Virus record (IMG/VR): IMGVR_UViG_3300028486_000080
Span: 80,199-144,198 of that record
From: a virus
Lineage: Duplodnaviria > Heunggongvirae > Uroviricota > Caudoviricetes
Direction: 5' to 3' (one strand)
Length of the DNA: 64,000 nt
A program made the translations under genes and the position numbers. How positions within the stretch are numbered: the first letter of the stretch is position 1; the number at the start of each line of letters is the position of its first letter. Below the pieces are notes generated by a model that saw only the letters and a program-made list of their open reading frames with translations, was not told the origin of the DNA and did no database searches. Shown piece after piece: positions 37,923 to 53,442 of the stretch.

Positions 37923-37999
37923 TGGCACTAGCGAGTGGGTTCGAACCACTGTATCCCGATCCACAATCGAGCGCTCTCACCCATTGAGCTACGCTAGCA
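37923..37999 (-). tRNA. tRNA-His(GTG)
   Basis: minus-strand cloverleaf: acceptor gctagcg/cgctagt, anticodon arm ctcga-ttGTGga-tcggg, T-arm agtgg-gttcgaa-ccact, encoded CCA. Confidence 0.6.
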
Positions 38000-38001
38000 T
38001 T

Positions 38002-38085
38002 ATTGGTGCTCCAGGAGGGACTCGAACCCCCACGCCTAGGCACGTGGTCCTAAGCCACGCGTGTCTACCGTTTCACCACTGGAGC
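38002..38085 (-). tRNA. tRNA-Leu(TAG)
   Basis: acceptor gctccag pairs with ctggagc; anticodon loop cttagga; long variable arm; T-loop ttcgagt. Confidence 0.55.
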
Positions 38086-38087
38086 GG

Positions 38088-38161
38088 TGCCCTACCCCGG
38101 GCTCGAACCGGGAAAACTCGAATTTTAAGTCCGATACGTATACCAATTCCGTCAGTAGGGC
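38088..38161 (-). tRNA. tRNA, anticodon loop cttaaaa (TAA) in a short-variable-arm body
   Basis: acceptor gccctac/gtagggc, T-arm cccgg-ttcgagc-ccggg; class I length but a Leu-type anticodon, so identity is uncertain. Confidence 0.4.
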
Positions 38162-38185
38162 TGTTAGATTGTTACACTTTCTTAA

Positions 38186-38270
38186 TGGTGCGCCCGGTAG
38201 GACTTGAACCTACACGCCTTGCGACATTCCCTTTTGAGGAGAACGCGTCTACCAATTTCGCCACGAACGC
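38186..38270 (-). tRNA. tRNA-Leu(CAA)
   Basis: acceptor gcgttcg/cgggcgc (two G-U), D-loop aattggtaga, anticodon arm ttctc-ctCAAaa-gggaa, long variable arm, T-arm gtagg-ttcaagt-cctac, CCA encoded. Confidence 0.55.
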
Positions 38271-38271
38271 A

Positions 38272-38349
38272 TGGTGCCGATAGGAGGACTCGAACCTCCA
38301 TTTGCCCAGACTCTCGATCTGGTGCGTCTACCAATTTCGCCATATCGGC
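38272..38349 (-). tRNA. tRNA, anticodon unassigned (GAG-like loop with C33)
   Basis: acceptor gccgata/tatcggc, T-arm ggagg-ttcgagt-cctcc; anticodon stem-loop ambiguous. Confidence 0.4.
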
Positions 38350-38361
38350 TTTTGTAAGTTT

Positions 38362-38448
38362 TGGAGGACCGAGTGAGATTCGAACTCACGTTGGGCTTTC
38401 GCCTTCCGATTAAAAGTCGGGTGCCATCGTCCGCTCGGCCACCGGTCC
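38362..38448 (-). tRNA. tRNA, class II (Ser-like D-arm), anticodon unclear
   Basis: D-arm tggccgagcgg resembles tRNA-Ser; T-arm gtgag-ttcgaat-ctcac; anticodon loop reads cttttaa. Confidence 0.45.
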
Positions 38449-38633
38449 TGAAGACCTAGCCGTCGAGCGGTTAGGTCAGTCGATGGACGAGCTTTTTAAG
38501 TCGTAAGGCATGCAACGACAATCGCGCGGCGTGTGCGCCAGCGATTAAATGTCGGAAGATGTTCGTTGCGTTTGTCATGACGGGATATATAAGGTATCTA
38601 TATGCGTATGTCAACAGGTAAAGGTAAATAAAA

Positions 38634-38918
38634 ATGTCTGCGAATATTGCTCTGCTACCGCTCTCCACTGATGAGATTTTCAAACTTGTCAGGCGGCAGA
38701 TCAAAGCCAAAAAGCTGAAAACCGCAACGCTATCCACGAGAGCCGGATGCTTCTATTTCTACCTGCGCCTCGACAAAGACACGACCATCACTGTTGCTAT
38801 GTATCTAGATGGGCGGATGTCGATGTCGTACACCTCCCGCCTCGCTGGCAAGGAGCATGTCATCTGGTTCAGCAAACAGGAGCGTCAGGCATTGGCGCCA
38901 TCGTTGGTGCAACTGTGA
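38634..38918 (+). CDS. hypothetical small protein between tRNA clusters
   Basis: 94 aa ORF; weak. Confidence 0.25.
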   Translation: MSANIALLPLSTDEIFKLVRRQIKAKKLKTATLSTRAGCFYFYLRLDKDTTITVAMYLDGRMSMSYTSRLAGKEHVIWFSKQERQALAPSLVQL

Positions 38919-39056
38919 AGAAGCTGTGGCGGTGGATCACGTCTTGGTGGCGACCGAAGCCGCAGTACACTCAGATTGAATGGCAGGTTGATCTCGTAGT
39001 CATATGCGGCAAAGGCGCGGCGCGCATCTGGGGCATCGAAACCTCCGAAGAGGAAG

Positions 39057-39130
39057 TGGAGCGAATGAAGGGAATCGAACCCTTGTAACCTGATTGGAAG
39101 TCAGGGACTCTACCATTGAGCTACATCCGC
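39057..39130 (-). tRNA. tRNA-Gly(TCC)
   Basis: anticodon arm cctga-ctTCCaa-tcagg; T-arm aaggg-ttcgatt-ccctt; acceptor gcggatg/cattcgc. Confidence 0.6.
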
Positions 39131-39499
39131 ATTGTCTCGTTACGCTCTAGTATCTCCATAAACTCTACCGCCTTGTCCCGCTTGATCCGTAGATAAGGGA
39201 TCAGTTGGGGCAGCAGCGCCAGCAAGTCCAACTGCTTCGTGACATGCCACGTCAGCATCGGCTTTCTGTTATCCGGCACCTTCTTGTTACGGACGCGACC
39301 GCAGCCCGTAATCTCTTGGCACCACTCTATACTCCCGAAGTGCGTGTTGTGCACTTGAAGGCACAGGGCTCGATATCTTTTTCCACCGCGACCAGTGACC
39401 GTGTGGATTGAGAAGTTTCCCTCACCGTCAATGTAACCGGCGATCCAAGCCGCGTCGGTCTTTCGGAGGCGCTTTACAGTGCAAGCTCTAAGTACACGA
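39121..39499 (-). CDS. LAGLIDADG homing endonuclease (single-motif type), start uncertain
   Basis: AWIAGYIDGEGNFSI LAGLIDADG motif; the 195-aa ORF in the track runs through two tRNA genes, and no in-frame ATG lies between the motif and the tRNA at 39507. Confidence 0.5.
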
Positions 39500-39506
39500 G
39501 CGATGG

Positions 39507-39580
39507 TGGTTCTCCTGCGAGGATTCGAACCTCGATCTTCAGCTTCAAAGACTGCTATCCTACCGTTAGACGAAAGGAGA
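39507..39580 (-). tRNA. tRNA, anticodon unassigned
   Basis: T-arm cgagg-attcgaa-cctcg on the minus strand with complementary acceptor ends. Confidence 0.4.
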
Positions 39581-39581
39581 G

Positions 39582-39655
39582 TGGTTCTCGAAGCCTGACT
39601 CGAACAAGCATTCACCGCTCCAGAGGCGGGTGTCCTACCATTAGACGATTCGAGA
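39582..39655 (-). tRNA. tRNA, possibly Gln(CTG)
   Basis: acceptor tctcgaa/ttcgaga; anticodon loop ctctgga with a 4-bp stem. Confidence 0.4.
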
Positions 39656-39663
39656 ATGGACGC

Positions 39664-39739
39664 TGGAGCATAAGGTGGGACTCGAACCCACAGCCTCTTC
39701 GTTGGCAACGAAGCGCTCTAACCCTTGAGCTACAAATGC
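39664..39739 (-). tRNA. tRNA-Gly(GCC) with U5-U68 and U6-U67 acceptor mismatches
   Basis: D-arm gctc-aagggtta-gagc, anticodon arm cttcg-ttGCCaa-cgaag, T-arm gtggg-ttcgagt-cccac, CCA encoded; acceptor gcatttg vs cttatgc. Confidence 0.5.
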
Positions 39740-39740
39740 G

Positions 39741-40067
39741 TTAGCGTTGTCGTCCAGTCCAGTAAGCGTCCATGTTCTCTAGTGCCATCCGCAGATGGCG
39801 CTCTCCTTCAGGGTTTGCCGAGTGGATATTCCACCGGTAGTGTTTGCCAAATCCGTTACGCGCCCAAAGTTCAAGCGTATCGGCTACGATCTGAGAAGTG
39901 TTGTCTCCTCCGAGATCGTGATCGAAGGAGATACGATAGATGTCATAGTCAGGGTTCAACAGCGCTTGTAGTGCTTCCTCCGCCGTGCGCGCGATGATCC
40001 AACGCACGTAGTTGCCGGTTGGCGGCATACGCTCATCATCGATCCACAAGGCGCAGTAGTAACCCAT
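39741..40067 (-). CDS. hypothetical protein
   Basis: 108 aa ORF between tRNA genes; family not identified. Confidence 0.4.
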   Translation of the reverse strand: MGYYCALWIDDERMPPTGNYVRWIIARTAEEALQALLNPDYDIYRISFDHDLGGDNTSQIVADTLELWARNGFGKHYRWNIHSANPEGERHLRMALENMDAYWTGRQR

Positions 40068-40080
40068 CGTCTAAATTCCC

Positions 40081-40160
40081 TGGCGAGCATACCGGGACTC
40101 GAACCCGGTTTTCAAGGTGGACAGCCAAGCGTAATAACCCATATACGATACGCCCCAAGC
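40081..40160 (-). tRNA. tRNA-like element (atypical, possibly pseudo-tRNA)
   Basis: T-arm ccggg-actcgaa-cccgg and CCA present but no consistent anticodon arm found. Confidence 0.25.
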
Positions 40161-40163
40161 CAA

Positions 40164-40238
40164 TGGAGCCGGATACAGGACTCGAACCCGTGCAGCCGCC
40201 TTACAAGAGCGGTGCTCTACCTGTTGAGCTAATCCGGC
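40164..40238 (-). tRNA. tRNA-Thr(TGT)
   Basis: acceptor gccggat/atccggc; anticodon arm ccgct-ctTGTaa-ggcgg; D-arm tagctcaacaggtagagc. Confidence 0.6.
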
Positions 40239-40415
40239 GATGTGTTTGGGAGGGGGCGCGCGAAACGCGACTTGTATGATTACAGGCTTGCGCCCTGCGC
40301 AACCATACGCGCGCCCCCGGTGGTATCGAGACCACCGAGAGTGTTTGTGCCTTGAAGGCGCGTATGTTGCAGCATTTTGATCATGAGGGCTATATAAACC
40401 CTAATGATCCCGATG

Positions 40416-41786
40416 TCAAGAGCTAAGTGCTGCATTTTTTCTAATAGTCGAAAAGCTCTCGGGGTAGCGCACATAAGGGGCTTCCCATAACACTTCGAAC
40501 TGATGATGCTGCTGGACTCCGCGCTTGGACTTCTTACCTTTGTCAGTCACCGGCTCTTTGAAAACATCGACAAGCTCGCCGTTGATATGCGCCGCTGACG
40601 CCTTCATCGCATACTTGAACGTATCGCGGTTGACCTTCTGAAGAAGCCCACCACCCATACCAAACGCGATGTTGTCGATGGACCATCCATTGTTCATGAG
40701 CACATCCATCATATCGACAATCGTATCCGGCTCCATGCCGTCGCCTTGAATGATACGCAGATAGGGTGGCAGAACTTTGTAGCCTTTGCCGTTGGTCGTG
40801 AAACCGAACCGCTGCGCGAGGCTTTCGAGCACAGCGAGCACCACTTCATTCGGACGCCCACTGTCGGGACGAATGACAAGCGTACCCCCGCGCGACATGA
40901 CCTCATGACGTAGGCGGTCGCCCCAAATGTTTGAGACGGCATTGTAGATATCGTAAGAGTCCGACACGACTGAGAACAACGCCCCAGGCTTGGAGAATTG
41001 CTCAATCATATTCCGGTAGGCATCAACTTCGCGGTTGCGTCCCCACGAGGTGATGGTGCTGTGTTCCGCGGCGGGTATGGAGAACCCAGGCATGTCGATA
41101 TCGGAGTATGCTGCATAGTACTTGTCGAAGGCTTCCAGCGCCTCCATTGTGTCGGTGCCTTGGAAGTTGATCAGATGTGCGAGCCCACCCAGACCAGCGC
41201 TTTCGCTAGAGGATGCCCCACGTGCTCCGAAGTCGTGGAGCTTGTAGTCCAGACCATGAAGCGTATCGCATGTTAGCGCCATGTAGCGCTGGATGCGTTT
41301 TTTGATCTCGCGTGAGACAGTTGCGACAGTGGATGGATACCAAATTGCGCGCAACAGCGCGGTCTCCACGAAGCTCGTCAGCCAAGGCAGGCGATCATCA
41401 GTGTTCACGACCTGAATTTGTGGCGTGCCGATAGGTACAGGCAAGCCGCTGGGGAGAGATTGAATACGCAGCGGCAAGAATCCGCCGTGTTTGGTGACGA
41501 TGTAAATCCAGTCTTCGAGGTTGAAAGGAACCCCATGACGACGACATATGTCGCTGGCACGCGCAACATCGTCAGCGGTGATGGGATTACGCAGATAGTC
41601 CAGCGCAAACTGCACCGCACCGAAATGAACGATTTCGACGGGTCCATATTTGTCTTGATCGAACCAGCGCTTGGCTTCATTGCTCAAGCCGCGCGCTTCG
41701 ATGTAGGACCACACCTTCGTAGTCCCTGGAGGGTATTGAAGGTAGTGGCTCATCTTGTAGCTGTCGGTATGAAGAATCGGGTTCAT
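40416..41786 (-). CDS. nadV: nicotinamide phosphoribosyltransferase (NadV/NAMPT)
   Basis: N-terminus MNPILHTDSYKMSHYLQYPPGTT is the NAMPT signature; 456 aa; adjacent NMNAT gene. Confidence 0.85.
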   Translation of the reverse strand: MNPILHTDSYKMSHYLQYPPGTTKVWSYIEARGLSNEAKRWFDQDKYGPVEIVHFGAVQFALDYLRNPITADDVARASDICRRHGVPFNLEDWIYIVTKHGGFLPLRIQSLPSGLPVPIGTPQIQVVNTDDRLPWLTSFVETALLRAIWYPSTVATVSREIKKRIQRYMALTCDTLHGLDYKLHDFGARGASSSESAGLGGLAHLINFQGTDTMEALEAFDKYYAAYSDIDMPGFSIPAAEHSTITSWGRNREVDAYRNMIEQFSKPGALFSVVSDSYDIYNAVSNIWGDRLRHEVMSRGGTLVIRPDSGRPNEVVLAVLESLAQRFGFTTNGKGYKVLPPYLRIIQGDGMEPDTIVDMMDVLMNNGWSIDNIAFGMGGGLLQKVNRDTFKYAMKASAAHINGELVDVFKEPVTDKGKKSKRGVQQHHQFEVLWEAPYVRYPESFSTIRKNAALSS

Positions 41787-42109
41787 TTTATAGCTCCTAA
41801 GAAGCTCTCAATGAATGGGATGATGTCCGCATCATGATCGACGTGCGGGCGAACTACTCTGATGAGCAGCGCAGCCTTTTTGAGGTAATCTTGCTGCGAA
41901 TGCTCTTGCCACGTAGGGACACCATTTTTGATGAAGTAGAACCAACCACATCCGTCCGTATGGTTCCACCGACACAAACGGTCGTGCAGCACGATAGCTA
42001 CTTGCTGATCTAGCGTCAGCGCTGTTAGATGCTTCTGTTCCTCGATGAGTTTCGCCTTCTCGGCTTCAAGCTCAGCGATCTTCTTATCGATGCTGGATAC
42101 ACTGTTCAT
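41783..42109 (-). CDS. hypothetical protein between nadV and nadM
   Basis: 108 aa, N-terminal coiled coil; ATGA overlaps on both sides. Confidence 0.45.
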   Translation of the reverse strand: MNSVSSIDKKIAELEAEKAKLIEEQKHLTALTLDQQVAIVLHDRLCRWNHTDGCGWFYFIKNGVPTWQEHSQQDYLKKAALLIRVVRPHVDHDADIIPFIESFLGAIK

Positions 42110-43125
42110 ATCCCCACCATCACTTCCAGGATTGCGTAATGATCTTCGAAGAGCATGTCACGGTTGCGGCGTATCTCATCGAATGGCTTCCAGAAAGCTC
42201 GCTTGGCGTCGTCTCCACCTTTGACCTTTGGTAGAGACTCGCGCTCTTCGAGCTTGAACAGATACGCCTCGGTAATCGTGCGCCCACGTTCTGAGCGCAT
42301 CGGATCATCGAACGTCAACTGCTTGGTGATTGACCCTTCTAGAACCCGATCAGGGACTTTGATCTTAGTCTCTTCCTTGAGTTCTCGGAGCACTGCCTGC
42401 TTCAGAGTCTCAGTCTGATTGACGAAACCTCCAGGCAATGCCCACAAACCCCGCCCTGGAGAGGATCGGCGCTGCACCAGGAGGATGTGACCTGACTGGA
42501 CCACTACGGCATCTACCGTCTGGAATGTGGGCTTGTACGGGGCGACCGACCACTCTTCCTTATAGTCCTTGATAACGCGGAATTCTTCACGTAGCCAGCC
42601 GACGACAGGTTCAGCCGCCTTTCGGAAGGCTATGAAGTGTGCGTCGTTTATGAAGTCCTCGCGATAGACGCCCACCTCAAGCCAACGCCCACGGAACATG
42701 GTGCCGCTGAAGTCAGCAACCTCCTGCACCTCGACGTAATCCCATTGCGGGAACTTATGGAGGTAGTAGGTGGTGTGATCCTTATCGAGTCCGACGATAC
42801 CGATCTTGATTGGATCGGCGCTGAACTTTTTGTGCGTGATCGAATGGACGACATCCTGAAGTGATGCCACCCAACGATCATCGTTGTAGGTGTGGTCGTG
42901 CTGTACACCGAAGTGGATGCGCGGATCATTCTCCGGGAAGCACGCCTTGATCATGGCGATTCGCTCCGCGCTGGAGAACGGATTTCGGGTAGATCGGGAT
43001 TTCTGATGGGAGCCCAGAACGAAGATCAGGTTCTTCGATTTCTTCAGGGCTTCGAGGGCAACGTGATGGTGCCCTTTATGGTAGGGCTGGAATCGCCCCA
43101 CGAAAACGAGGTAGTCGTATTCCAT
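42106..43125 (-). CDS. natV: bifunctional NMN adenylyltransferase / Nudix ADP-ribose pyrophosphatase (NadM-Nudix, NatV-like)
   Basis: (H/T)xGH nucleotidyltransferase motif FVGRFQPYHKGH; Nudix box GGFVNQTETLKQAVLRELKEETKI in C-terminal half. Confidence 0.85.
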   Translation of the reverse strand: MEYDYLVFVGRFQPYHKGHHHVALEALKKSKNLIFVLGSHQKSRSTRNPFSSAERIAMIKACFPENDPRIHFGVQHDHTYNDDRWVASLQDVVHSITHKKFSADPIKIGIVGLDKDHTTYYLHKFPQWDYVEVQEVADFSGTMFRGRWLEVGVYREDFINDAHFIAFRKAAEPVVGWLREEFRVIKDYKEEWSVAPYKPTFQTVDAVVVQSGHILLVQRRSSPGRGLWALPGGFVNQTETLKQAVLRELKEETKIKVPDRVLEGSITKQLTFDDPMRSERGRTITEAYLFKLEERESLPKVKGGDDAKRAFWKPFDEIRRNRDMLFEDHYAILEVMVGI

Positions 43126-43207
43126 AGATAGCTCCTATCTATGAGGGTGGAACCCTCCCGTCTATCGGGTGGGCATGTAGTCTAATGTAGTATATCTTCA
43201 GCGGATG

Positions 43208-43807
43208 TCAAGCCTTATCGCGTATTTCAGCGTAAGAATGATCTAGGCGCGCGGGGAACGCCTTATCGATCTCCTGTGTCGAGAGGTACACGTCGTAATA
43301 CACCGCCTCATAGCCAAAGGGGCGATACTGATTGACGCCTCGTGGTGCGATAATGCGTGAGTAGGCTTTCTCGCCTGAGCGCTTTACCTCACTTTCATAG
43401 CTGCCATAGTAGTCGCCTGCGAAGATGAATTCGTAGACATGATCCTGCCAGACGCAAGCCGGAACTTTCACAAGGTATTGAGGACCGAGCTTCATCGGGC
43501 GAGCCCATGCCGTGATCTCGCCAGCCTTTAGCGCATCCAATACATGCCGCACAGAGGCGAGAGGCGCGCGGCGCTCGATGAGATTCAGTGCGTCGAGCAG
43601 CTTAGTGTCTGGCAATGCGCCATCAACACCGTTGTCGTTCTTGCCGACATGAGCGAGCGGAGGAGGACTCTGGTAGGCGTCGAGCGGCGGGTTGACTAGC
43701 GGCTCTTGCCGCACAACACGTGAGACTTCAGCCAAGCGCTCCGGGTTGCGGAATACCTGCACTTCGGGTTCAGCCTTGAACAGTTTCCATAGAGCTTTGA
43801 ACATCAC
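43208..43807 (-). CDS. hypothetical protein
   Basis: 199 aa ORF. Confidence 0.45.
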   Translation of the reverse strand: MMFKALWKLFKAEPEVQVFRNPERLAEVSRVVRQEPLVNPPLDAYQSPPPLAHVGKNDNGVDGALPDTKLLDALNLIERRAPLASVRHVLDALKAGEITAWARPMKLGPQYLVKVPACVWQDHVYEFIFAGDYYGSYESEVKRSGEKAYSRIIAPRGVNQYRPFGYEAVYYDVYLSTQEIDKAFPARLDHSYAEIRDKA

Positions 43808-43880
43808 TCCACCTCATCAAATGGCGCCAGCACGCAGAACACGAGCACAGCGAGACACAGGACAATAATGATCTGATAGA

Positions 43881-44078
43881 TCATGAACGGCTGCGCTTTT
43901 TCTCGCGTTCCTCATCCGCTTCTAGCTTCCATTTAGGACAAGCGGCGCCCGTCTTGGGATTGATTTGCGAAGGCGTACCGAAACGTGTCCAGTGCGCGAT
44001 CTTGCGGGCGATGTAGTCGAGTTTAGGTTTGTCAGCCACGGTAGCGATCTCCACGAGAATGACCGATATATCGTCCAC
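43881..44078 (-). CDS. hypothetical small protein
   Basis: 65 aa ORF. Confidence 0.3.
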   Translation of the reverse strand: MDDISVILVEIATVADKPKLDYIARKIAHWTRFGTPSQINPKTGAACPKWKLEADEEREKKRSRS

Positions 44079-44253
44079 GAAGGGCTGAAATGACCGCCAG
44101 AACAGCCAAAATGACCGCGACGAGGGTATACAGCGGCGCTGAAGAGAGGGTGCTGAATGTCACCACTGAACCGATAGCGTTGCCGATGAGTAGCCAGCGC
44201 ATAGTTATCTCCTGTTGAGCCCTAGCATTAACGTAAATGATTAGGGTTGTCAA
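44032..44253 (-). CDS. small membrane protein
   Basis: 73 aa with two hydrophobic helices. Confidence 0.3.
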   Translation of the reverse strand: MTTLIIYVNARAQQEITMRWLLIGNAIGSVVTFSTLSSAPLYTLVAVILAVLAVISALRGRYIGHSRGDRYRG

Positions 44254-44298
44254 GCGCCAATATCACTACCATATTAGTGTTAACCATTGGAGGGTCAT

Positions 44299-44505
44299 AT
44301 GAAACTATTCATCGCTCTAGCAGTCACATTCTTACTAGCGTTCAGTGCTCAGGCGGCGCCTAAGCACCATTCGGGCGCATATAACCATCACGCGCATAAA
44401 CATCACGACGCTCGGCGCTGGCATCAGAACCGTTGGCGCCATCGGCATCATGGTCCGCGTCGCCCGCGTCCCTACTTCGTGTTCCCGTTCTACTTTGGCT
44501 GGTGA
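44299..44505 (+). CDS. secreted histidine-rich small protein
   Basis: GGAGGG RBS then ATG 44299; signal peptide MKLFIALAVTFLLAFSAQA; mature part HH..HKHHD..RRWH..RHRHHG. Confidence 0.45.
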   Translation: MKLFIALAVTFLLAFSAQAAPKHHSGAYNHHAHKHHDARRWHQNRWRHRHHGPRRPRPYFVFPFYFGW

Positions 44506-44528
44506 TACCTTGACACCCTTATCCTGAC

Positions 44529-44804
44529 TTGTTAAGGTTAAGGATGATCAAGATTAAAGCACAGCTATACGTGCAAGGTCGTGGCGTCGCGCGCGACCTT
44601 GCCGACATCACCATCTGGACAGAGATCGACAACGCCCATCACGGGTATCGGATCAGCTTGCCTGATGTCGAAATCAATGGACAGGTTAAGAAGCGGCGTA
44701 GCGCGCACCAGAATATTTTGCACGTCCTGCAAGAGGTGCTGGATAACGCGGACCTGAAAAAGCTTGGGGAGGACTACATCCCCAGAGGCGGCGTAATCAG
44801 GTAA
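44529..44804 (+). CDS. hypothetical small protein
   Basis: 91 aa ORF. Confidence 0.35.
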   Translation: MLRLRMIKIKAQLYVQGRGVARDLADITIWTEIDNAHHGYRISLPDVEINGQVKKRRSAHQNILHVLQEVLDNADLKKLGEDYIPRGGVIR

Positions 44805-44805
44805 T

Positions 44806-44879
44806 TGGAGACGCGAGCCGGAATCGAACCGACATCCGATGAGTTGCAGTCAACTGCATAGCCATTCTGCCATCGCGTC
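44806..44879 (-). tRNA. tRNA, anticodon unassigned
   Basis: acceptor gacgcga/tcgcgtc, T-arm gccgg-aatcgaa-ccgac, CCA encoded. Confidence 0.4.
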
Positions 44880-44885
44880 ATGTAG

Positions 44886-44973
44886 TGGAAGACCAGAAGG
44901 GATTCGAACCCTTGTAGGGCTCGCGCCCGGCTGATTAAGAGTCAGCTACCATTAGCCACTCGGTCACTGGTCT
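44886..44973 (-). tRNA. tRNA, class II, anticodon unassigned
   Basis: acceptor agaccag/ctggtct, T-arm aaggg-attcgaa-ccctt, long variable arm; anticodon loop reads ctcttaa. Confidence 0.45.
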
Positions 44974-45031
44974 ATATTTCAGTCCTAAGGGCATTTTCAC
45001 TGCGCAGTGAAAATGCCCATTCTAGTGAAAG

Positions 45032-45107
45032 TGGTACCCCGTCTAGGAATCAAACCTAGTCAATGACCGGGTGTAAACCGGATGCCGTCCCATCTGGCTC
45101 ACGGGGC
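45032..45107 (-). tRNA. tRNA, possibly Val(TAC)
   Basis: acceptor accccgt/acggggc (G-U), T-arm ctagg-aatcaaa-cctag; anticodon loop tttacac. Confidence 0.45.
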
Positions 45108-45120
45108 ATAATTCATAGTA

Positions 45121-45211
45121 TGGTGCTCGTGCTTGGATTCGAACCAAGTCGAGAACGCTGATCTGGCGCTGAAAGGTTTATAAGACCTCCCTGTGTCCAA
45201 CACCCACGAGC
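45121..45211 (-). tRNA. tRNA, class II, anticodon unassigned
   Basis: acceptor gctcgtg/cacgagc, T-arm cttgg-attcgaa-ccaag, 91 nt with long variable arm; anticodon loop reads cttataa. Confidence 0.45.
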
Positions 45212-45264
45212 GTATTTGCAAGTGGGCTACATATTCGTCCTTCCATAACCTTCTTCCTTCAAAT

Positions 45265-45339
45265 GGTAGACCCGGCTGGCTCTGCCCCAGCGACCTTTCG
45301 ATTATCGGTCGAACGCTCTCCTCACTGAGCTACGAGTCT
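45265..45339 (-). tRNA. tRNA, possibly Ile(GAT), noncanonical T-loop
   Basis: D-arm tagctcagtgagg; anticodon arm ttcga-ccGATaa-tcgaa; T-arm gctgg-ggcagag-ccagc. Confidence 0.4.
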
Positions 45340-45345
45340 ATGTAT

Positions 45346-45421
45346 TGGTGGACAAGGCGAGGATCGAACTCGCTGCCTCCTGATTGCAAGTCAGGCGCTC
45401 TCCCAGATGAGCTACATGCCC
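45346..45421 (-). tRNA. tRNA-Ala(TGC)
   Basis: anticodon arm cctga-ctTGCaa-tcagg; G3-U70 Ala identity pair; D-arm tagctcatctgggagagc; T-arm gcgag-ttcgatc-ctcgc; U6-U67 mismatch. Confidence 0.6.
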
Positions 45422-45504
45422 GTAACTAAATTCAACATGGCGAGGGCTGATTAACGACCTACCCTTCTTACCTCCCGGAACGGTCATGCGGGCGGCCATT
45501 TATT

Positions 45505-45602
45505 TGGCGGATGCGGGATGGATTCGAACCTCCACGACTGTTACGTCCAAACGGTTTTCAAGACCGGTGCCGTTACCCAGCAATCTTTCGGCTTACGCAT
45601 CC
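45505..45602 (-). tRNA. tRNA-Ser(TGA)-like, imperfect T/acceptor arms
   Basis: anticodon region ggcaccggtcttgaaaaccg nearly identical to bacterial tRNA-Ser(UGA); long variable arm; T-stem has a mismatch. Confidence 0.45.
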
Positions 45603-45606: not shown

Positions 45607-45700
45607 TGGCGGAAGGTCTGGGATTCGAACCCAGGTGACACGGGAACGCCGGTCAAACGCGCTAGCAACGCGCCGGTTTCAGCCTCTCACCCAACCTTCC
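45607..45700 (-). tRNA. tRNA-Ser(GCT)
   Basis: acceptor ggaaggt/accttcc, anticodon arm gcgcg-ttGCTag-cgcgt, long variable arm, T-arm ctggg-ttcgaat-cccag. Confidence 0.55.
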
Positions 45701-45705: not shown

Positions 45706-46215
45706 TCACGCGATCAACACTAGCCGTAAGTGAAGCTCAGTGACGATTGCTTCCAAAGTCGATAGCTGGATTTCTCCGTTGCCGTTTTCGACCTTCGATA
45801 TCGTCGCCTGCCTAACTCGTGCCAGATTAGCCAACTGCTGTTGAGTCATCCCCTTTTGGCGCCGCAGTGTTCTTATCTGCTCGCCAAGCGGGAGATCATC
45901 AAATTGGTTGAACCAAATCCAGGCTGTTTCGATGTCCTCAGGTGTGGTCATGAACCATTCGGTTCTACCGCGCCTGTGTTCCTTGAGCTTGTTGTGTATT
46001 GCTCGCTCAAGGGTCGTGGCATCGTCGCACCAGATGATTAGATCAACCACCGGCTCCTCTTGCATCGCGGACTTGAGTGATAGAATCCGTTTTACCGGAT
46101 CGCCTCTCGACATGCCGATCTTCAACAAGTAGGGACCGAAGCGCTTTGTCTGGCTCGGATAGTGAAACGCGTAAACTGCCTCCTGACCTTTACCTATCTG
46201 TTTCTCTACGTGCAT
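45706..46215 (-). CDS. T5orf172 (GIY-YIG-like) domain protein fused to XRE-family HTH
   Basis: N-terminus PYLLKIGMSRGDPVKRILSL...TEWF matches the T5orf172 domain; C-terminal LRRQKGMTQQQLANLARVRQATISKVENG is a classic XRE HTH; sits inside a tRNA array. Confidence 0.6.
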   Translation of the reverse strand: MHVEKQIGKGQEAVYAFHYPSQTKRFGPYLLKIGMSRGDPVKRILSLKSAMQEEPVVDLIIWCDDATTLERAIHNKLKEHRRGRTEWFMTTPEDIETAWIWFNQFDDLPLGEQIRTLRRQKGMTQQQLANLARVRQATISKVENGNGEIQLSTLEAIVTELHLRLVLIA

Positions 46216-46279: not shown

Positions 46280-46370
46280 TGGTGGGTGACGGACGGAATC
46301 GAACCTCTTGCCATTAAGGATCGGGGTTACAACCCGACGACAGCCCAGCCATCCTTACTTGCGTCACCCA
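46280..46370 (-). tRNA. tRNA-like element, weak T-stem (possible pseudo-tRNA)
   Basis: acceptor gggtgac/gtcaccc and CCA present, T-loop aatcgaa, but T-stem pairs poorly. Confidence 0.25.
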
Positions 46371-46519: not shown

Positions 46520-46597
46520 TTGGCTGGTCCGGTAGGAATCGAACCTACCTCTATGCTGGTTAACAGCCAGCCGCTTTCACCTTGATTGCTACGGACC
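46520..46597 (-). tRNA. tRNA-Asn(GTT)
   Basis: acceptor tggtccg/cggacca; anticodon arm gctgg-ctGTTaa-ccagc; T-arm gtagg-ttcgatt-cctac. Confidence 0.6.
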
Positions 46598-46598
46598 A

Positions 46599-46675
46599 AT
46601 GGTGCTTGTGGATGGTGCTGCCCCACCGACGCGCGCCTTTTCAAGACGCCGCTCTACTACCTGAGCTACACAAGC
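46599..46675 (-). tRNA. tRNA, anticodon unassigned, noncanonical T-loop
   Basis: acceptor gcttgtg/cacaagc with CCA; T-loop lacks TTC. Confidence 0.35.
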
Positions 46676-48174: not shown

Positions 48175-48477
48175 TCAAAAAAGGATCGACCGGACAAGCT
48201 CAGCCCGTGGATCGCCGTCAGCCTCTAACTTCTCAACCCACTCTTCTAGGAGCAACCCGCCCTTGTCGTTATTGCACTGATGACATACGAACATACATAG
48301 AACGTGTGATCCACCCTTACACTTGGGGATGATGTGATCACGAGTGATGTTCCGAGGATTGCACTCAGGCTCTTCGCGGCGCTTGTTCATTGGCTGCCCA
48401 CAGTAGGGGCACGGTGTGCCTCCGTAGTCCTGGTACTTTCTCTTGGCGCGCTTTCCACCGCCAGCGTTCGGAATCAT
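48175..48477 (-). CDS. HNH endonuclease (small)
   Basis: CPYCGQ...RDHIIPKCKGGSHVLCMFVCHQCNNDKG: HNH with paired Cys zinc site. Confidence 0.65.
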   Translation of the reverse strand: MIPNAGGGKRAKRKYQDYGGTPCPYCGQPMNKRREEPECNPRNITRDHIIPKCKGGSHVLCMFVCHQCNNDKGGLLLEEWVEKLEADGDPRAELVRSILF

Positions 48478-48492: not shown

Positions 48493-48567
48493 TGGTGCCG
48501 AAGGGGTGAATTGAACACCCTACCCTTCCCTTACGAGGGGATTGCTCTACCGATGAGCTACAACGGC
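48493..48567 (-). tRNA. tRNA, possibly Thr(CGT), with U5-U68/U6-U67 acceptor mismatches
   Basis: D-arm tagctcatcggtagagc; anticodon loop ctcgtaa; T-arm gggtg-ttcaatt-caccc; acceptor gccgttg vs cttcggc. Confidence 0.45.
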
Positions 48568-48613: not shown

Positions 48614-48690
48614 TGGTGCCCCAAAGAGGATTCGAACCTCTGACCTTCACCATACCAAGGTGCTGCTCTGCCGGGCTGAGCTACCGGGGC
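48614..48690 (-). tRNA. tRNA, possibly Thr(GGT)
   Basis: T-arm agagg-ttcgaat-cctct; anticodon loop ttggtat with a 4-bp stem. Confidence 0.45.
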
Positions 48691-48696: not shown

Positions 48697-48770
48697 TGGC
48701 AGGTGCCGTAGGAATCGAACCCACGTAAACCGGGTTGGAGCCGGTTGCTCTACCATTGAGCTAGACACCT
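48697..48770 (-). tRNA. tRNA-Trp(CCA)
   Basis: anticodon arm accgg-ctCCAac-ccggt; D-arm tagctcaatggtagagc; acceptor aggtgtc/ggcacct. Confidence 0.6.
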
Positions 48771-48776
48771 ATAACT

Positions 48777-48851
48777 TGGTCGCCCTGGTGGGAATTGAAC
48801 CCAACGCAGCCCGCTTGAGAGGCGAGTGGTCTACCACTAACCTACAGGGCG
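48777..48851 (-). tRNA. tRNA, possibly Glu(CTC)
   Basis: acceptor cgccctg/cagggcg; anticodon arm ctcgc-ctCTCaa-gcggg. Confidence 0.45.
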
Positions 48852-48855
48852 AAAT

Positions 48856-48932
48856 TGGTCCCGCATGTCGGACTTGAACCGACGACCTTCCGCTTGAAGG
48901 GCGGCTGCTCTTCTCTTCTAAGCTAATGCGGG
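48856..48932 (-). tRNA. tRNA, possibly Glu(TTC)
   Basis: acceptor cccgcat/atgcggg; T-arm gtcgg-ttcaagt-ccgac; anticodon loop ccttcaa. Confidence 0.45.
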
Positions 48933-49037
48933 TTATTCGCGAGATTGGTTCGTACCTACTTTTGGCCCCGCAGGCACCAATTTCACTTACGAACCAATCT
49001 CTCGGAAAAGGTAGGATGCTCCTACCCTTTCGGTATT

Positions 49038-49115
49038 TGGTAGCGGTAGTCGGATTCGAACCGACGATTTCCGAGCTTATGAGGCTGGTGAGGACGACCG
49101 CTCCTCCATACCGCA
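49038..49115 (-). tRNA. tRNA, anticodon unassigned
   Basis: T-arm gtcgg-attcgaa-ccgac on the minus strand with CCA; D/anticodon arms irregular. Confidence 0.35.
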
Positions 49116-49118
49116 AAA

Positions 49119-49195
49119 TGGTCTACCGTGTAGGATTCGAACCCACGTGACCGTGTACCCAAAACACGTGCCTGACCAGACTAGGCTAACGGTAG
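49119..49195 (-). tRNA. tRNA-Pro(TGG)
   Basis: acceptor ctaccgt/acggtag; anticodon arm cgtgt-ttTGGgt-acacg; T-arm gtggg-ttcgaat-cctac. Confidence 0.55.
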
Positions 49196-50153: not shown

Positions 50154-50822
50154 ATGCTCTCAGGCAAAGCAATAGCCCCCGGATTGCTCCGAGGGCTAAG
50201 GGAAGGCTTTCTGTTGCTAAGCGCCTTCAGAACTCCAGTAGAGGGTGTCCACTAGCTACCGTTAGGCAGCGATGCGGAAGTCCTCAACCATAGGCGAATT
50301 GTCGTTCGCATCTATGTGGTTCTTGCGTTAACGGAGCTTGCGCCCGACTGTCTCTTTTCCGCCTACAACGCCAGTCGATCCTAGTTCCGCCCCATCAACA
50401 GCACACTCGGGACTTGTCTTCCGCCCGTGCCTCTTTAACAGTGTGCTGGTGGTGGAGCGGCGGGGTACTGCCCCCCGGTCCTGTCCGTCTTCAGTTGAAC
50501 GTCATCAACAGTGATGGGTATATGGCATGTGTGAGGTTATTTGTCAAGAGCCTTTGAAAGATGCAGAGCGCGCTCGGGATCGAACCGGGACACCCTTGCT
50601 GTTGCCAAACTTAGACCTACCCGCCCTTGCCGGATCATCAGTCGCGTGGTTCAACGATACCCACGCCAAGCTAGTGGCTCTACACCTTTCAAAAAATCTT
50701 GCTACCGGGTACGAAGTCGCTCTGGGCTCCGTTCTCACCTGTGCTTAGGCTGCGCTTTTGTTACCCAAGGAAGCACCCTTCAGGCGTTTGTGGCGCGTAC
50801 TAGACCCAGCAGCCTGATAACC

Positions 50823-51371: not shown

Positions 51372-51471
51372 TATAACACCTCTTGCTTAATGCTCGCGTT
51401 AACCTTACTTTTATTATTGACAGTTGTCAACCTCTGTGCTCTGATGTTAACGTTAATGAATAGTTAGCTTT

Positions 51472-51777
51472 GTGAGGTTTGTAATGTGGTATGCAGGTAT
51501 TGTGATTTGCAATCTGATCATTGGAAAGTGTTCAGTTATGGGGCTGGCGCCTGAAGGTAAGACAGCCTTTGAAGCAAAGGAGCAGTGCCAGCGAACGATA
51601 GAATCGGGCATGAGTAAACTCGCAAAGCTCGACATCGACCGCGTTAGAGGAGCGCTTAAGGAAAATACCATCACGATTAGTGGTGGGTGCCTTAACCGTC
51701 CAGCCGACTGGGAGCGTGCCCCATACGAATTCCAGTATTGGTTCGGACCAACCCCGCGGAAAAAGGAAGTCCTCTGA
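51472..51777 (+). CDS. small secreted/membrane-anchored protein
   Basis: N-terminal hydrophobic signal-like segment; 101 aa. Confidence 0.4.
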   Translation: MRFVMWYAGIVICNLIIGKCSVMGLAPEGKTAFEAKEQCQRTIESGMSKLAKLDIDRVRGALKENTITISGGCLNRPADWERAPYEFQYWFGPTPRKKEVL

Positions 51778-51780
51778 TGT

Positions 51781-52049
51781 TCGGGTTAATTTTAACGGTT
51801 TGCCTAGCTTCAAGTCCCGCCTGTGAGTCAATCGACCACCGCACGTGTGTGCGCACGAAGCTATGCTCGGTCCAGTTCGAGCCGGTAGCTGTTGATGTTA
51901 AGCCTAATGAAAAGCAATGCTTTATGCAGGGATCGATGTACCTAGCAAAACCGGGAGGCTGGCAAGACAAGCATCCAGAGCTTCGCATCAAAGCCATTGC
52001 TTGCGGCGAAGCGGTGGACTTCAACAAACATGCTGAGCAGGAGATTTAA
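51781..52049 (+). CDS. small lipoprotein
   Basis: MFGLILTVCLASSPAC lipobox-type signal; internal start of ORF 51738. Confidence 0.4.
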
Positions 52050-52051
52050 TT

Positions 52052-52246
52052 ATGTGGATGCTCGTGGCTGTAGCGTGCCAGCTTTCTGCGATCAATGAGT
52101 GCAAAGGTGTACGTTTCTCAATGCTTGGGGCTGCTACCAAGCGTGAGTGTCGCTTTCAGGGTATCGAAGCGACGAACGAGTGGGGCAAGAAGAACCCCGG
52201 CTGGTTCATCCGTCGCTGGGATTGCGACAACACTGACTTCAAATAA
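52052..52246 (+). CDS. small secreted cysteine-containing protein
   Basis: 64 aa, N-terminal signal-like MWMLVAVACQLSA. Confidence 0.35.
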   Translation: MWMLVAVACQLSAINECKGVRFSMLGAATKRECRFQGIEATNEWGKKNPGWFIRRWDCDNTDFK

Positions 52247-52247
52247 T

Positions 52248-52324
52248 TGGCGAGCACGGCAGGACTCGAACCTGCAACCCCAGGGATAGAAGCCCCGTGC
52301 TCTGTCCAATTGAGCTACGTGCCC
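52248..52324 (-). tRNA. tRNA-Arg(TCT)
   Basis: acceptor gggcacg/cgtgctc; anticodon arm cgggg-ctTCTat-ccctg; T-arm gcagg-ttcgagt-cctgc; CCA encoded. Confidence 0.6.
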
Positions 52325-52329
52325 TCACC

Positions 52330-53142
52330 TTAGCGACAAGTCACGACGCGTCTAAGTAGTGCGTTCAACGGAGCTTCCGGGAACTCACGATCAGGCGCGT
52401 CGTTCTCCAGGCTCTTCAACCCGGCGAGCATGTGCGTAACCCATTCTTCGATGAGTGGGTAAGGCGCAACCTGTGCACCTTCGAATGCTTGATGCTTGCG
52501 GTTCTTCCAGTCTTCAATCTCAGCAAGCACCGGAGCACCAATGCCTTCCACCTCGCGCAGCAATTGATTGAAACCTACAGGTGGAATTTTCCACTCGTGT
52601 TGTACCATCCACAGGGCAGCGAGGATCGGACGAAGAACGTAGACGTACTTCTTCACCGAAATGTTCTTGCCGAAATTACCTTCACCGAACTCGCGATTGG
52701 TCAGCGCGACGTAGTGCTTCATCAGACGAAAGGCTGAGTAGTGCTTCTCTATAGCCTCACGTAGTCCGATGATGAAAATGTTGCTGCCATCCACATAGCG
52801 AGTGTCGCAGAACAACCACTCGATCAGCGATGGGTTGGAAGCTTTTGCCAGCGTCATCGTCTTGAAAATGTCCCACCCAGAGAGATCGTATGGAAAGTCC
52901 ATCTTCTCCAACGTAGGAGGCGGAGCCGACATCTGGAGGTAACGCTGCGCAGGAGCCGTGAAGATGAAGCGCACATCATAGTCGCTGTCAGGCGAAGCTA
53001 AGCCCCACGCCCGACTGCCGCTTTCAACAGCATAGAGCACGCTCACACCGTTCTCGGTCTCTATATCAGTCAGCATCAACTTGATGCGGGCTTCTGGCGT
53101 CAACATAGTTTGGTCTCCCGACCAGTTTGATTTGGAGAGCAC
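52330..53142 (-). CDS. Pol-beta superfamily nucleotidyltransferase (COG3541-like)
   Basis: LYAVESGSRAWGLASPDSDYDVRFIF = GS-x9-13-[DE]h[DE]h nucleotidyltransferase motif; 270 aa; flanked on both sides by tRNA genes. Confidence 0.55.
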   Translation of the reverse strand: MLSKSNWSGDQTMLTPEARIKLMLTDIETENGVSVLYAVESGSRAWGLASPDSDYDVRFIFTAPAQRYLQMSAPPPTLEKMDFPYDLSGWDIFKTMTLAKASNPSLIEWLFCDTRYVDGSNIFIIGLREAIEKHYSAFRLMKHYVALTNREFGEGNFGKNISVKKYVYVLRPILAALWMVQHEWKIPPVGFNQLLREVEGIGAPVLAEIEDWKNRKHQAFEGAQVAPYPLIEEWVTHMLAGLKSLENDAPDREFPEAPLNALLRRVVTCR

Positions 53143-53209
53143 GGTTGGATTCGAACCAACGGCATCCAGCTTCGGAAGCTGGCACTCTAGTCCGCTGAGC
53201 TACGTGCCC
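53133..53209 (-). tRNA. tRNA-Arg(CCG)
   Basis: acceptor gggcacg/cgtgctc; anticodon arm ccagc-ttCCGaa-gctgg; T-arm gttgg-ttcgaat-ccaac. Confidence 0.6.
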
Positions 53210-53365
53210 ATAAAGAAACCCTCGACAGATCGATCCCTTGGGGGCTGTCGAGGGTTCCAACGACTAACCAGGGGTTGACCTATCGCATTTGATCGCTCCC
53301 TATACTGTTACAGATACAGGGAGGCTAGTCCAGCTATAGGCTGGAGGCAAGCTTAATTCGGATTT

Positions 53366-53442
53366 TGGAGGACACGGCAGGATTCGAACCTGCAACCTCA
53401 TGCTTCGTAGGCAAGCGCTCTGTCCAATTGAGCTACGTGTCC
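53366..53442 (-). tRNA. tRNA-Arg(ACG)
   Basis: acceptor ggacacg/cgtgtcc; anticodon loop ctACGaa; T-arm gcagg-ttcgaat-cctgc. Confidence 0.55.

Follow-up and report, generated by a model that had tools for sequence, protein, structure and literature searches.

Why should a phage carry enough transfer RNA (tRNA) genes to read every codon box, and why should several of these tRNAs have bodies of a class that does not go with their anticodon? These are the questions raised by an island in a virus of the Caudoviricetes (IMG/VR record IMGVR_UViG_3300028486_000080), of which we analyzed a 64,000-nucleotide (nt) stretch, hereafter the window (positions 80,199 to 144,198 of the record). The island lies at positions 37,923-53,442 of the window (15.5 kb) and holds 33 tRNA genes, all on the minus strand. 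We show below what the island contains, how its RNAs fold and that their odd designs are conserved. From this content we think it probable that the island would provide a phage-supplied tRNA pool with ribosome rescue and RNA-end repair, in which the odd tRNA bodies would be chargeable yet evade nucleases. As an island it is ordinary for a large phage, and its worth lies in the non-canonical tRNA families, foremost the variable arm of its tRNA-Ile(UAU).

ARAGORN, run on the window, called 29 tRNA genes and a permuted transfer-messenger RNA (tmRNA), and the Rfam tRNA model (RF00005) found 29 loci above its gathering score in a whole-window scan and a 30th (45035-45107) in a scan of the region. 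Two of the RF00005 loci, 45267-45339 (49.4 bits) and 46603-46675 (41.3 bits), are missed by ARAGORN and were read by hand as Ile(GAU), whose T-loop is GGCAGAG, and Phe(GAA), whose T-loop is GGCAGCA, against the usual UUCRANN. Two more loci match only the tRNA-Sec model and below its threshold (45509-45602, 34.4 bits; 46284-46369, 22.8 bits), both with conserved homologues in other phages, and one (45121-45211) is an ARAGORN-only call, reported as "Ile(tat)", that belongs to a family of 71 sequences. The genes fall into seven groups of 6, 6, 8, 3, 7, 1 and 2, the same grouping and number as the roughly 33 tRNAs in seven minus-strand arrays proposed by the initial annotation, which had also suggested ARAGORN as a check, by which most loci (29) are indeed called. 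That annotation had flagged loci at 40081, 46280, 46599 and 49038 as atypical or tRNA-like, all four of which are real tRNAs, and the noncanonical T-loops it had noticed are seen in Ile(GAU) and Phe(GAA). Neither 30 dinucleotide-preserving shuffles of the region nor the remaining 48.5 kb of the window gave a single tRNA call. A complete CCA end is encoded in 32 of the 33 genes and the anticodon loops are intact in all. With introns allowed and the threshold lowered, ARAGORN gave four intron-containing calls (introns of 81-2360 nt) that overlap genes and were discarded as spurious.

The set covers 20 of 20 amino acids and every codon box. We give each gene here with its anticodon, coordinates and Rfam score; all were called by ARAGORN, except where the odd families are taken up further on. 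One tRNA each serves Ala (UGC; 45346-45421, 63.4 bits), Asn (GUU; 46521-46598, 47.3 bits), Asp (GUC; 40081-40155, 39.4 bits), Cys (GCA; 44806-44879, 54.9 bits), His (GUG; 37923-37998, 64.8 bits), Met (CAU; 49038-49115, 46 bits), Pro (UGG; 49119-49195, 50.8 bits), Trp (CCA; 48697-48770, 63.8 bits) and Val (UAC; 45032-45107, 38.6 bits), as well as Phe (GAA) and Tyr (GUA). Pairs serve Gln (UUG, 39507-39580, 51.6 bits; CUG, 39582-39655, 53.1 bits), Glu (UUC, 48856-48932, 56.8 bits; CUC, 48777-48851, 58.1 bits), Gly (UCC, 39057-39130, 71.2 bits; GCC, 39664-39739, 64.8 bits), Ile (GAU and UAU), Lys (UUU and CUU) and Ser (UGA and GCU). Thr has three (UGU, 40164-40238, 66.2 bits; CGU, 48493-48567, 54.4 bits; GGU, 48614-48690, 58.1 bits), Leu has four (UAG, UAA, CAA and GAG), and the three Arg isoacceptors that had been read by eye were called as ACG (53366-53442, 69.2 bits), CCG (53133-53209, 64.3 bits) and UCU (52248-52324, 65.8 bits), the first two with U73. 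Gly(GCC) and Thr(CGU) each have two U.U oppositions in the acceptor stem; Asp(GUC) has two in the anticodon stem and a weak D-stem, and has homologues in other phage loci. The tRNA-His has G1.U72, G73 and an encoded CCA and lacks an encoded G-1, which places it near, though not in, the G-1-less A73 type of some alphaproteobacteria.

Codon counts over 22 open reading frames (ORFs) of the window (8,943 codons; G+C at third codon positions, GC3, 0.60) give 24 AGA plus AGG among 454 Arg codons (5%) and 29 UUA among 724 Leu codons (4%), and tRNAs for both are present; ATA makes up 14% of Ile codons (73 codons), CTA 16% of Leu codons, and Lys codons number 427. Completeness, more than a fit to the codons that the phage itself prefers, seems to mark the tRNA set. 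Suppressor-type tRNAs occur in related arrays, namely an annotated "tRNA-Pyl" with anticodon CUA in phage DSS3_MAL1 (13412-13485 of the fetched locus) and an 85-nt tRNA with anticodon UUA on a contig of a Bdellovibrio metagenome-assembled genome (MAG); the window has none.

The class II tRNA-Ile(UAU) at 45121-45211, identified by ARAGORN and by the statistics of its family, has A73, C4-G69, a compact D-arm (GUGU-UGG-ACAC) and a variable arm that forms a 5-base-pair (bp) helix (agcgc-CAGAUCA-gcguu) with C-G as third pair. A scan that left the variable arm unspecified returned 66 unique long tRNA(UAU) genes, and across the family of 71 unique sequences the arm contains GAU in 67 and AGAU in 65, against AGAU in about 13 of 290 other class II tRNAs under the same test. 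In 66 of the 71 a helix of 3 bp or more directly closes a heptaloop NN-GAU-NN, commonly (C/U)A-GAU-NN, and in this the arm copies the anticodon arm of tRNA-Ile(GAU). Counting from the loop, 63 of the 66 have C-G as third pair, with variable second and fourth pairs. A discriminator A is found in 57 of the 71, and the true anticodon stem has C29-G41 in only 18. Since the identity set of bacterial tRNA-Ile consists of A73, C4-G69, C29-G41, G/k2C34, A35, U36, A37 and A38 (PMC9976931), the arm reproduces the anticodon-branch part of that set, and it probably gives isoleucyl-tRNA synthetase (IleRS) the G34-A35-U36 and C29-G41 determinants that the UAU anticodon lacks. If true, this would be a natural case of identity determinants shifted to another tRNA arm, and the pseudo-anticodon arm would bear on AUA decoding without lysidine and on the design of orthogonal tRNAs.

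The two tRNA-Lys genes, UUU at 38362-38448 (51.7 bits) and CUU at 44886-44973 (53.4 bits), are also class II, with U73, and were called by ARAGORN. Both have a long paired variable arm (stems of 3 and 4 bp with tetraloops) and a D-arm of Ser/Tyr type, yet keep the exact loop context of tRNA-Lys, GACUYUUAAUC (anticodon loops CUUUUAA and CUCUUAA). The anticodon stem of Lys(UUU) is that of tRNA-Ser(GCU) in Erythrobacter phage XM05, and Lys(CUU) lies upstream of tRNA-Cys in the place that Ser(GCU) holds in XM05. A pattern scan for such long-arm tRNA-Lys matched 49 viral contigs, some of them 300-600 kb long, and gave 24 matches in 185,579 bacterial and archaeal genomes, 23 of which, mostly on MAG contigs, have 3-17 tRNA genes within 8 kb. 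The sole cultured-isolate genome among them is Thalassospira xianhensis MCCC 1A02616, whose contig1 carries UUU and CUU forms in a 12-tRNA array that is presumably a prophage. The viral contigs, the 24 matches and the window together give 55 unique sequences, with variable arms of 11-21 nt (a stem of 2-5 bp called in 48, none in 7) and A or U as discriminator, G occurring in one.

The leucine tRNAs depart in the opposite direction. Leu(UAA) (38086-38161, 54.3 bits), which ends in CC with the final A missing, and Leu(GAG) (38272-38349, 55.6 bits) are of class I length with variable loops of 5 and 6 nt, and Leu(UAG) (38004-38085, 55.9 bits) and Leu(CAA) (38186-38270, 51.6 bits) have variable regions of 10 and 12 nt; ARAGORN called all four. 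Short forms account for 61 of the 162 unique tRNA-Leu in the fetched phage loci, for example at 1594-1672 and 3761-3838 of the fetched locus of Sinorhizobium phage Phosso, and often share an array with long-arm Lys and Ile(UAU). The class II Leu and Ser species that the initial annotation described are thus partly as stated, in that two of the four Leu tRNAs fall outside class II, and the two Lys tRNAs and Ile(UAU), on which it did not remark, are.

A further design is found in the tRNA-Tyr(GUA)-like gene at 46280-46369, one of the two loci matched by the Sec model, and its four homologues, which have an 8-bp acceptor stem, a 6-bp D-stem, a D-loop of 3-4 nt (3 in the window) and an effectively 4-bp T-stem in which A49 and C65 are never paired (hence 8/4). 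Counted sequence by sequence, the pairs of the acceptor and D stems change in a compensatory manner. All five sequences carry the anticodon GUA and, ahead of CCA, the discriminator A; G73 is listed as an antideterminant against leucyl- and tyrosyl-tRNA synthetases (LeuRS, TyrRS) in E. coli tRNA-Ser (PMC9976931), so a Tyr identity may be more probable than a Ser one. A pairing of the post-acceptor linker with the variable region, drawn by RNAfold, was rejected as it has no covariation in the four homologues. The homologue in phage Phosso (PV764938; 3183-3266 of the fetched locus) is unannotated.

The second locus matched by the Sec model, a class II tRNA-Ser(UGA)-like gene at 45505-45602 with G73 and CCA, neighbors an ordinary class II tRNA-Ser(GCU) (45607-45700, ARAGORN, 48.3 bits, G73). 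Its D-loop is 16 nt long, its T-stem contains an A.A mismatch and an extra nucleotide stands ahead of the 3' acceptor strand; the window copy may be impaired because of the last two features. It is about 80% identical to an unannotated element of the T5-like Vibrio phage Wyman (OQ095915; 1527-1636 of the fetched locus) and to elements in two MAG contigs, all with a D-loop of 15-16 nt. An 8-bp acceptor was considered for this gene and dropped, the eighth pair being U x C. Phage Wyman also has an 87-nt tRNA, annotated as tRNA-Gly(UCC), with a long variable arm.

In tRNA-Ile(GAU) (45264-45339; C33) and tRNA-Phe(GAA) (46600-46675), which both encode CCA, a T-loop of GGCRGNN type replaces UUCRANN. 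Such loops also occur in about ten further tRNAs of the fetched phage loci, and ARAGORN misses them all. The Rfam consensus of alphaproteobacterial tmRNA has GGCRGUA in this place, and the T-loops of Ile(GAU) and Phe(GAA) are therefore a known working alternative. Because the odd tRNAs form recurrent families with conserved pairs and compensatory changes, they are conserved designs and not products of decay, and because some of them escape the standard finder and are unannotated in GenBank, as in Wyman and Phosso, phage tRNA counts are underestimates. No description of a long-arm phage tRNA-Lys or tRNA-Ile(UAU) was found in the searchable literature, which is incomplete and leaves novelty unproven.

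Besides tRNAs, the island encodes a two-piece (permuted) tmRNA of alphaproteobacterial type at 50171-50551 on the minus strand, called by ARAGORN and scored at 108.5 bits by RF04321 (tmRNA_permuted, threshold 47 bits) and 104.5 bits by RF01849 (alpha_tmRNA, threshold 50 bits), whose model positions 1-355 it matches. In ARAGORN's reading the 3' tRNA domain occupies gene positions 55-97 and the 5' domain 154-180; the tag, ANDNSPMVEDFRIAA followed by a stop, starts at Ala and ends in AA, the T-loop is GGCAGUA, and a terminator-like hairpin stands at the end of the gene (50198-50173). Among the ORFs scanned none has an SmpB domain, and presumably the SmpB of the host serves the phage tmRNA. The nucleotidyltransferase of the initial annotation is present as well, and is a Pol-beta nucleotidyltransferase of the RlaP family (52330-53142, minus strand; PF10127, 187.2 bits over profile positions 4-248 of 249); in the public gene call its start is an internal Met at 53106 (258 residues) instead of a GTG. 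RlaP adds 1-2 nt to damaged RNA 3' ends and is needed for aminoacylation of repaired tRNA (PMC12776372). A gene for a cyclic-phosphate-processing receiver (cRec) domain protein (39741-40067, minus strand; PF20274, 60.4 bits) stands among the tRNA genes, 350 nt from a nicotinamide phosphoribosyltransferase (NAMPT) gene. Both it and the tmRNA lie inside the range that the initial annotation had described and were overlooked there. RlaP and cRec are described among the counter-defence genes for RNA repair and NAD conflict of jumbo phages (PMC7824862).

How might these parts work together? We lean towards an explanation in which the phage's own tRNA pool would free late protein synthesis from host tRNAs, which tRNA-cleaving defence nucleases would attack and which would be ill matched to the codons of the phage. 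The odd bodies, that is long-arm Lys and Ile(UAU), short Leu, 8/4 Tyr and the tmRNA-type T-loops, would still be charged by host synthetases while being unlike the substrates of nucleases; the tmRNA would free ribosomes stalled on cleaved or starved messages, and RlaP with cRec would repair tRNAs with damaged ends by trimming and rebuilding these ends. The initial annotation had left the choice between codon-usage compensation and replacement of tRNAs lost to host anticodon nucleases; we favor replacement and repair as the likelier of the two because the set is complete, includes tRNAs for rare codons (AGA/AGG, UUA) and comes with the tmRNA, RlaP and cRec. Known biology is in keeping with this, as several nucleases, namely PrrC, PARIS AriB and a bacterial Schlafen, target tRNA-Lys(UUU) (PMC13056530), and phage tRNAs that evade tRNA-cleaving nucleases are documented (PMC10264068, PMC11555353).

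More tentatively, as a possibility that we rate lower than the general explanation, the odd tRNAs may belong to a class-switched toolkit found in many large phages, of which the window would hold the full set. The UAU arm would have been grafted from the anticodon arm of tRNA-Ile(GAU), letting an ordinary bacterial IleRS charge a tRNA whose own UAU anticodon it would not recognize and providing an AUA decoder without lysidine synthase, while the gain of an arm in Lys and its loss in Leu would hinder nucleases and keep charging, because lysyl-tRNA synthetase (LysRS) reads the anticodon and LeuRS needs no arm. If class switching does protect in this way, the notion that phage tRNAs evade defence would widen from point mutations to whole-body redesign.

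Several observations weigh against parts of this explanation. A scan of the window ORFs with 150 or more residues and of ORFs in the island found neither an RNA ligase nor an RtcB domain, which leaves RlaP without its usual partner there; the partner may lie elsewhere in the genome. The boxes of Ala, Pro, Val and Ser (UCN) are served by a U34 tRNA alone, and the one CAU tRNA has the U1xU72 mismatch and A11:U24 of an initiator, without the run of three G:C pairs in the anticodon stem, so the set is not fully self-sufficient. The long-arm Lys tRNAs retain G2 and A3 of the Ser-like body, by which seryl-tRNA synthetase (SerRS) may charge them. For tRNA-Ile(UAU), the anticodon-binding domain of IleRS would have to reach the variable arm; the mimic has A in the place of U33 and usually U in that of A37, and short tRNA(UAU) genes without the arm occur in phages too (7 unique).

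The alternatives differ in how much of the island they account for. Compensation for the codon usage of a host with higher G+C content, with tRNAs for host-rare codons and no role in defence, is the classical explanation of phage tRNAs (PMC10264068), and it accords with the phage's use of ATA and CTA alongside the presence of Ile(UAU) and Leu(UAG) and with the U34 found in many anticodons, which reads A-ending codons. It does not explain why there are tRNAs for AGA/AGG and UUA, codons rare in the phage itself, or for single-codon and unbiased families (Trp, Met, Asp), and it leaves the class-switched bodies, the tmRNA and the RNA-repair genes unaccounted for; as the whole story we consider it unlikely, though a serious contender. 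Missense recoding, in which SerRS or LeuRS would charge the long-arm Lys and Ile(UAU) tRNAs and Ser or Leu would enter at AAA, AAG and AUA, harming the host or recoding the phage, takes its appeal from Lys(UUU), with its anticodon stem and D-arm of the type of phage tRNA-Ser(GCU) and its G2 and A3. Allo-tRNAs with non-Ser anticodons are reported to insert Ser in E. coli (PMC5389517), and a nematode class II tRNA-Ile(UAU) to take Leu in vitro (PMC4300185). Without the long-arm tRNAs, however, the window would lack any Lys tRNA and any AUA decoder for the 427 Lys and 73 ATA codons of the 22 ORFs; the Lys tRNAs keep the exact tRNA-Lys loop context; G73, the antideterminant against LeuRS and TyrRS in E. 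coli tRNA-Ser (PMC9976931), occurs in 1 of 55 long-arm Lys tRNAs; and the tRNA(UAU) arm copies determinants of Ile and not of Ser or Leu. Recoding therefore seems improbable to us.

More doubtful still is the proposal that the tRNAs are punctuation, cut by RNase P and RNase Z to release the small ORFs, with some of the odd members being mere signals. The island genes do lie all on one strand with spacers of a few nt, an ORF of the LAGLIDADG family abuts tRNAs at both ends and has an AGGAGA within its upstream tRNA, and promoter-like sites occur at chance frequency (a scan for promoters and terminators gave no excess over shuffles, apart from the use of the hairpin at the tmRNA end). Punctuation would, however, need neither a complete CCA in 32 of 33 genes nor intact anticodon loops nor a non-redundant, complete decoding set, and we give it very little credence. 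Compensation alone, recoding and punctuation are all less well supported than tRNA replacement with rescue and repair.

Whether the island is a phage feature in the first place can be answered from the rest of the window. Judged by its genes, the carrier is a novel siphovirus of at least 165 kb with an alphaproteobacterium as its predicted host. A protein identical to one of the window is on a public contig of 165,361 bp, the window has genes for a terminase (PHROG, 1.8e-87), primase, ribonucleotide reductase, thymidylate synthase, tail and lysis proteins, and phage genes stand on both sides of the island. The large terminase subunit (TerL) shares about 31-33% identity with its counterparts in large siphoviruses of Erythrobacter, Sphingobium, Citromicrobium and Ruegeria (DSS3P8-like), and the base composition is 53% G+C with GC3 0.60. 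One Logan assembly matches window positions 30416-45495 base for base, and in a second, separate one the identical protein is present and the gene order agrees. Dense arrays of tRNA genes, odd ones like those of the window among them, do occur on contigs binned as bacterial, which would suit a bacterial chromosomal array or a mis-assembled chimera. Against this stand the terminase, tail, primase, ribonucleotide reductase and lysis genes on both flanks and the parts of the island reproduced in two independent assemblies, and the chance of such an origin appears almost negligible. No close relative of the phage was found in the phage, viral-contig and metagenome collections searched: a near-identity search of the region against 50,697 phage records returned a 56-nt stretch of tRNA-Gln as the sole match, a scan of viral contigs found no relative of RlaP, and the best NAMPT relatives have 56% identity in viral contigs and 60% in metagenome contigs. 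The window also carries cargo unusual for a phage, namely a TadE/Tad and von Willebrand A protein (5020-6369, minus strand), a voltage-gated-type ion channel (10998-11969, plus strand; Ion_trans, 106 bits), a CAP/SCP-domain protein (32762-33292, minus strand) and a Band_7-family protein (31550-32494, plus strand).

Between the second and third tRNA groups lie two genes of NAD+ metabolism, a NAMPT/NadV-like nicotinamide phosphoribosyltransferase (40416-41786; Pfam NAPRTase, 198 bits, and NAMPT_N) and a fusion of a cytidylyltransferase-like (NMNAT-type) domain with a Nudix domain (42106-43125; Pfam), both on the minus strand. Just outside the island are a PhoH gene and, on the same strand, genes for a calcineurin-like metallophosphoesterase (36324-36896; Pfam 27.5 bits, phrog_547 4e-48) and a Macro-domain protein, a family that processes ADP-ribose/phosphate (35002-35508; Pfam 72.9 bits). 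The genes for cRec, NAMPT, a 108-residue ORF and NMNAT/Nudix are thus clustered on the minus strand at 39741-43125 with the Macro gene near, and this cluster of cRec, NAMPT, NMNAT-Nudix and Macro resembles gene sets for NAD+ salvage and ADP-ribose processing that have been proposed to act against NAD+-depleting defences. Further away, on the plus strand, is a HAD_PNKP phosphatase-domain protein (17612-18079; PF25109, 85.8 bits) of a type that heals RNA or DNA 3' ends; it stands alone, with no kinase or ligase domain attached or adjacent.

Three nuclease domain families had been recognized by eye among the tRNA genes, and Pfam matches all three, all on the minus strand. The first is a single-motif LAGLIDADG ORF of I-CreI/I-MsoI type (39121-39504; PF00961, 24.1 bits against a cut-off of 23.1 bits for LAGLIDADG_1; phrog_5046, 1e-17) with the motif WIAGYIDGEGNF, whose related solved structures are the homodimeric I-MsoI, I-CvuI and I-CreI (I-MsoI at 5.9e-6 to 8e-14). 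It fills exactly the 376-nt spacer from tRNA-Gln(UUG) to tRNA-Gly(UCC), the first 10 nt of which supply its end and stop codon. No ATG, GTG or TTG occurs from the upstream tRNA to the catalytic motif, the sole start candidate being an ATC at 39504 that lies 6 nt past a Shine-Dalgarno-like AGGAGA inside that tRNA. Its alignment spans residues 3-115 of the 170-residue I-MsoI and positions 5-115 of the 161-position PHROG profile, and the C-terminal 50 or so residues, one third of a core domain of about 150-170 residues, are missing. Because it has no canonical start and aligns only to residues 3-115 of I-MsoI, the ORF is probably a decayed or truncated copy. A tblastn search against phages gave weak matches only, in capsid-gene regions of Gordonia phages. 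The family assigned to it at the outset holds, whereas the coordinates then given, 39121-39499, do not amount to whole codons and have no canonical start.

The other two nuclease ORFs are intact. A T5orf172/MUG113 protein of the GIY-YIG superfamily with a C-terminal HTH_3 domain (45706-46215; Pfam MUG113 46.6, T5orf172 40.4, HTH_3 43.5 bits) had no tblastn match in phages and has one non-identical relative, at 46% identity, among 5.8 billion non-redundant proteins. That relative comes just after a TerL gene, itself 32% identical to that of the window, in a 5.9-kb locus without tRNA genes, whereas the window's gene sits between tRNAs; the differing context of this single homologue is one weak hint of mobility. 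A small HNH-family protein of 100 residues (48175-48477; HNH_5 32.8 bits, HNH 25.2 bits, PHROG HNH families) has the zinc-binding cysteines in CPYCGQ...DHIIPK...CHQCNNDKG, and tblastn finds only weak homologues in cyanophages and vibriophages, at 30-38% identity. To call these proteins homing endonucleases, as the initial annotation did, goes beyond the domain matches, and the LAGLIDADG ORF is probably decayed; we infer that the nuclease-family ORFs are selfish or decayed passengers of the spacers, outside the mechanism proposed above.

How does the island compare with systems already known? Free-standing endonuclease genes are found in the tRNA regions of T4 (SegB) and T5 (HNH nicking endonucleases). 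Mobile nuclease genes inserted among tRNAs were the model of the initial annotation, and the window too has small nuclease ORFs in the spacers of clustered tRNA genes; the phage lineages and endonuclease families differ, and the window's LAGLIDADG ORF looks decayed. The repair and NAD+ sets of jumbo phages (PMC7824862) are similar in that the window also unites RlaP, cRec, Macro, Nudix, NAMPT and a PNKP-type phosphatase and that its cRec gene adjoins those of NAD+ salvage, but no RNA ligase is seen in the window and the genes stand among tRNAs rather than in a ligase operon. Phage tRNAs that counter defence, such as those of T5 against the retron effector PtuAB and other defences (PMC11555353, PMC10264068, PMC13056530), resemble the island in that the phage supplies the targeted isoacceptor. 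The cases described involve a few substitutions in the anticodon loop or stem, whereas the window shows a switch of the whole class, by which evasion would be achieved in another manner.

The odd tRNA bodies have their own parallels. The retrieved passages of Mukai et al. 2017 (PMC5389517) describe allo-tRNAs, or 8/4 tRNAs, with an 8-bp acceptor stem, a 4-bp T-stem, a long D-stem with a small loop and a long variable arm, report 8/4 tRNAs in alphaproteobacterial phages, give allo-tRNA(UAU) as the most abundant group and find six allo-tRNA(UAU) variants inactive as Ser-inserting suppressors; within these passages there is no mention of a GAU copy in the variable loop. The window's tRNA-Tyr(GUA)-like gene has the 8/4 fold and differs in its Tyr anticodon, A73 and a linker of 7-8 nt after the acceptor, while the tRNA(UAU) and Lys tRNAs differ in having a normal 7/5 branch. 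The nematode nev-tRNAs, which are class II with Gly or Ile(UAU) anticodons (PMC3333845, PMC4300185), also combine a class II body with UAU, but are eukaryotic and are reported to be charged with Leu through that body.

Closest to the island as a whole are the roseophage DSS3_MAL1 (MN602268) and Erythrobacter phage XM05, both large alphaproteobacterial siphoviruses with a TerL about 31% identical to the window's. DSS3_MAL1 has same-strand tRNA arrays with small ORFs, a permuted ssrA (T-loop GGCGGUA) and then a nucleotidyltransferase gene, and XM05 has a run Ser(GCU)-Cys-Trp in an array near primase and RtcB ligase genes. The nucleotidyltransferase of DSS3_MAL1 was considered as an orthologue of RlaP and set aside, as BLASTP shows no similarity between the two. 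DNA similarity of the window to these phages is limited to single tRNAs. In the fetched stretch of DSS3_MAL1 the one tRNA-Lys has the normal length, unlike the two class II tRNA-Lys of the window, and no nuclease-family product is named among the annotated ORFs. Because this distant relative has a similar layout of tRNA genes and ssrA, the island is of a known kind. To a lineage without a close sequenced relative it adds RNA-repair genes, a two-piece tmRNA and a decoding set that is nearly complete, and it differs from the islands of DSS3_MAL1 and XM05 in having the NAMPT/NMNAT and cRec genes within it.

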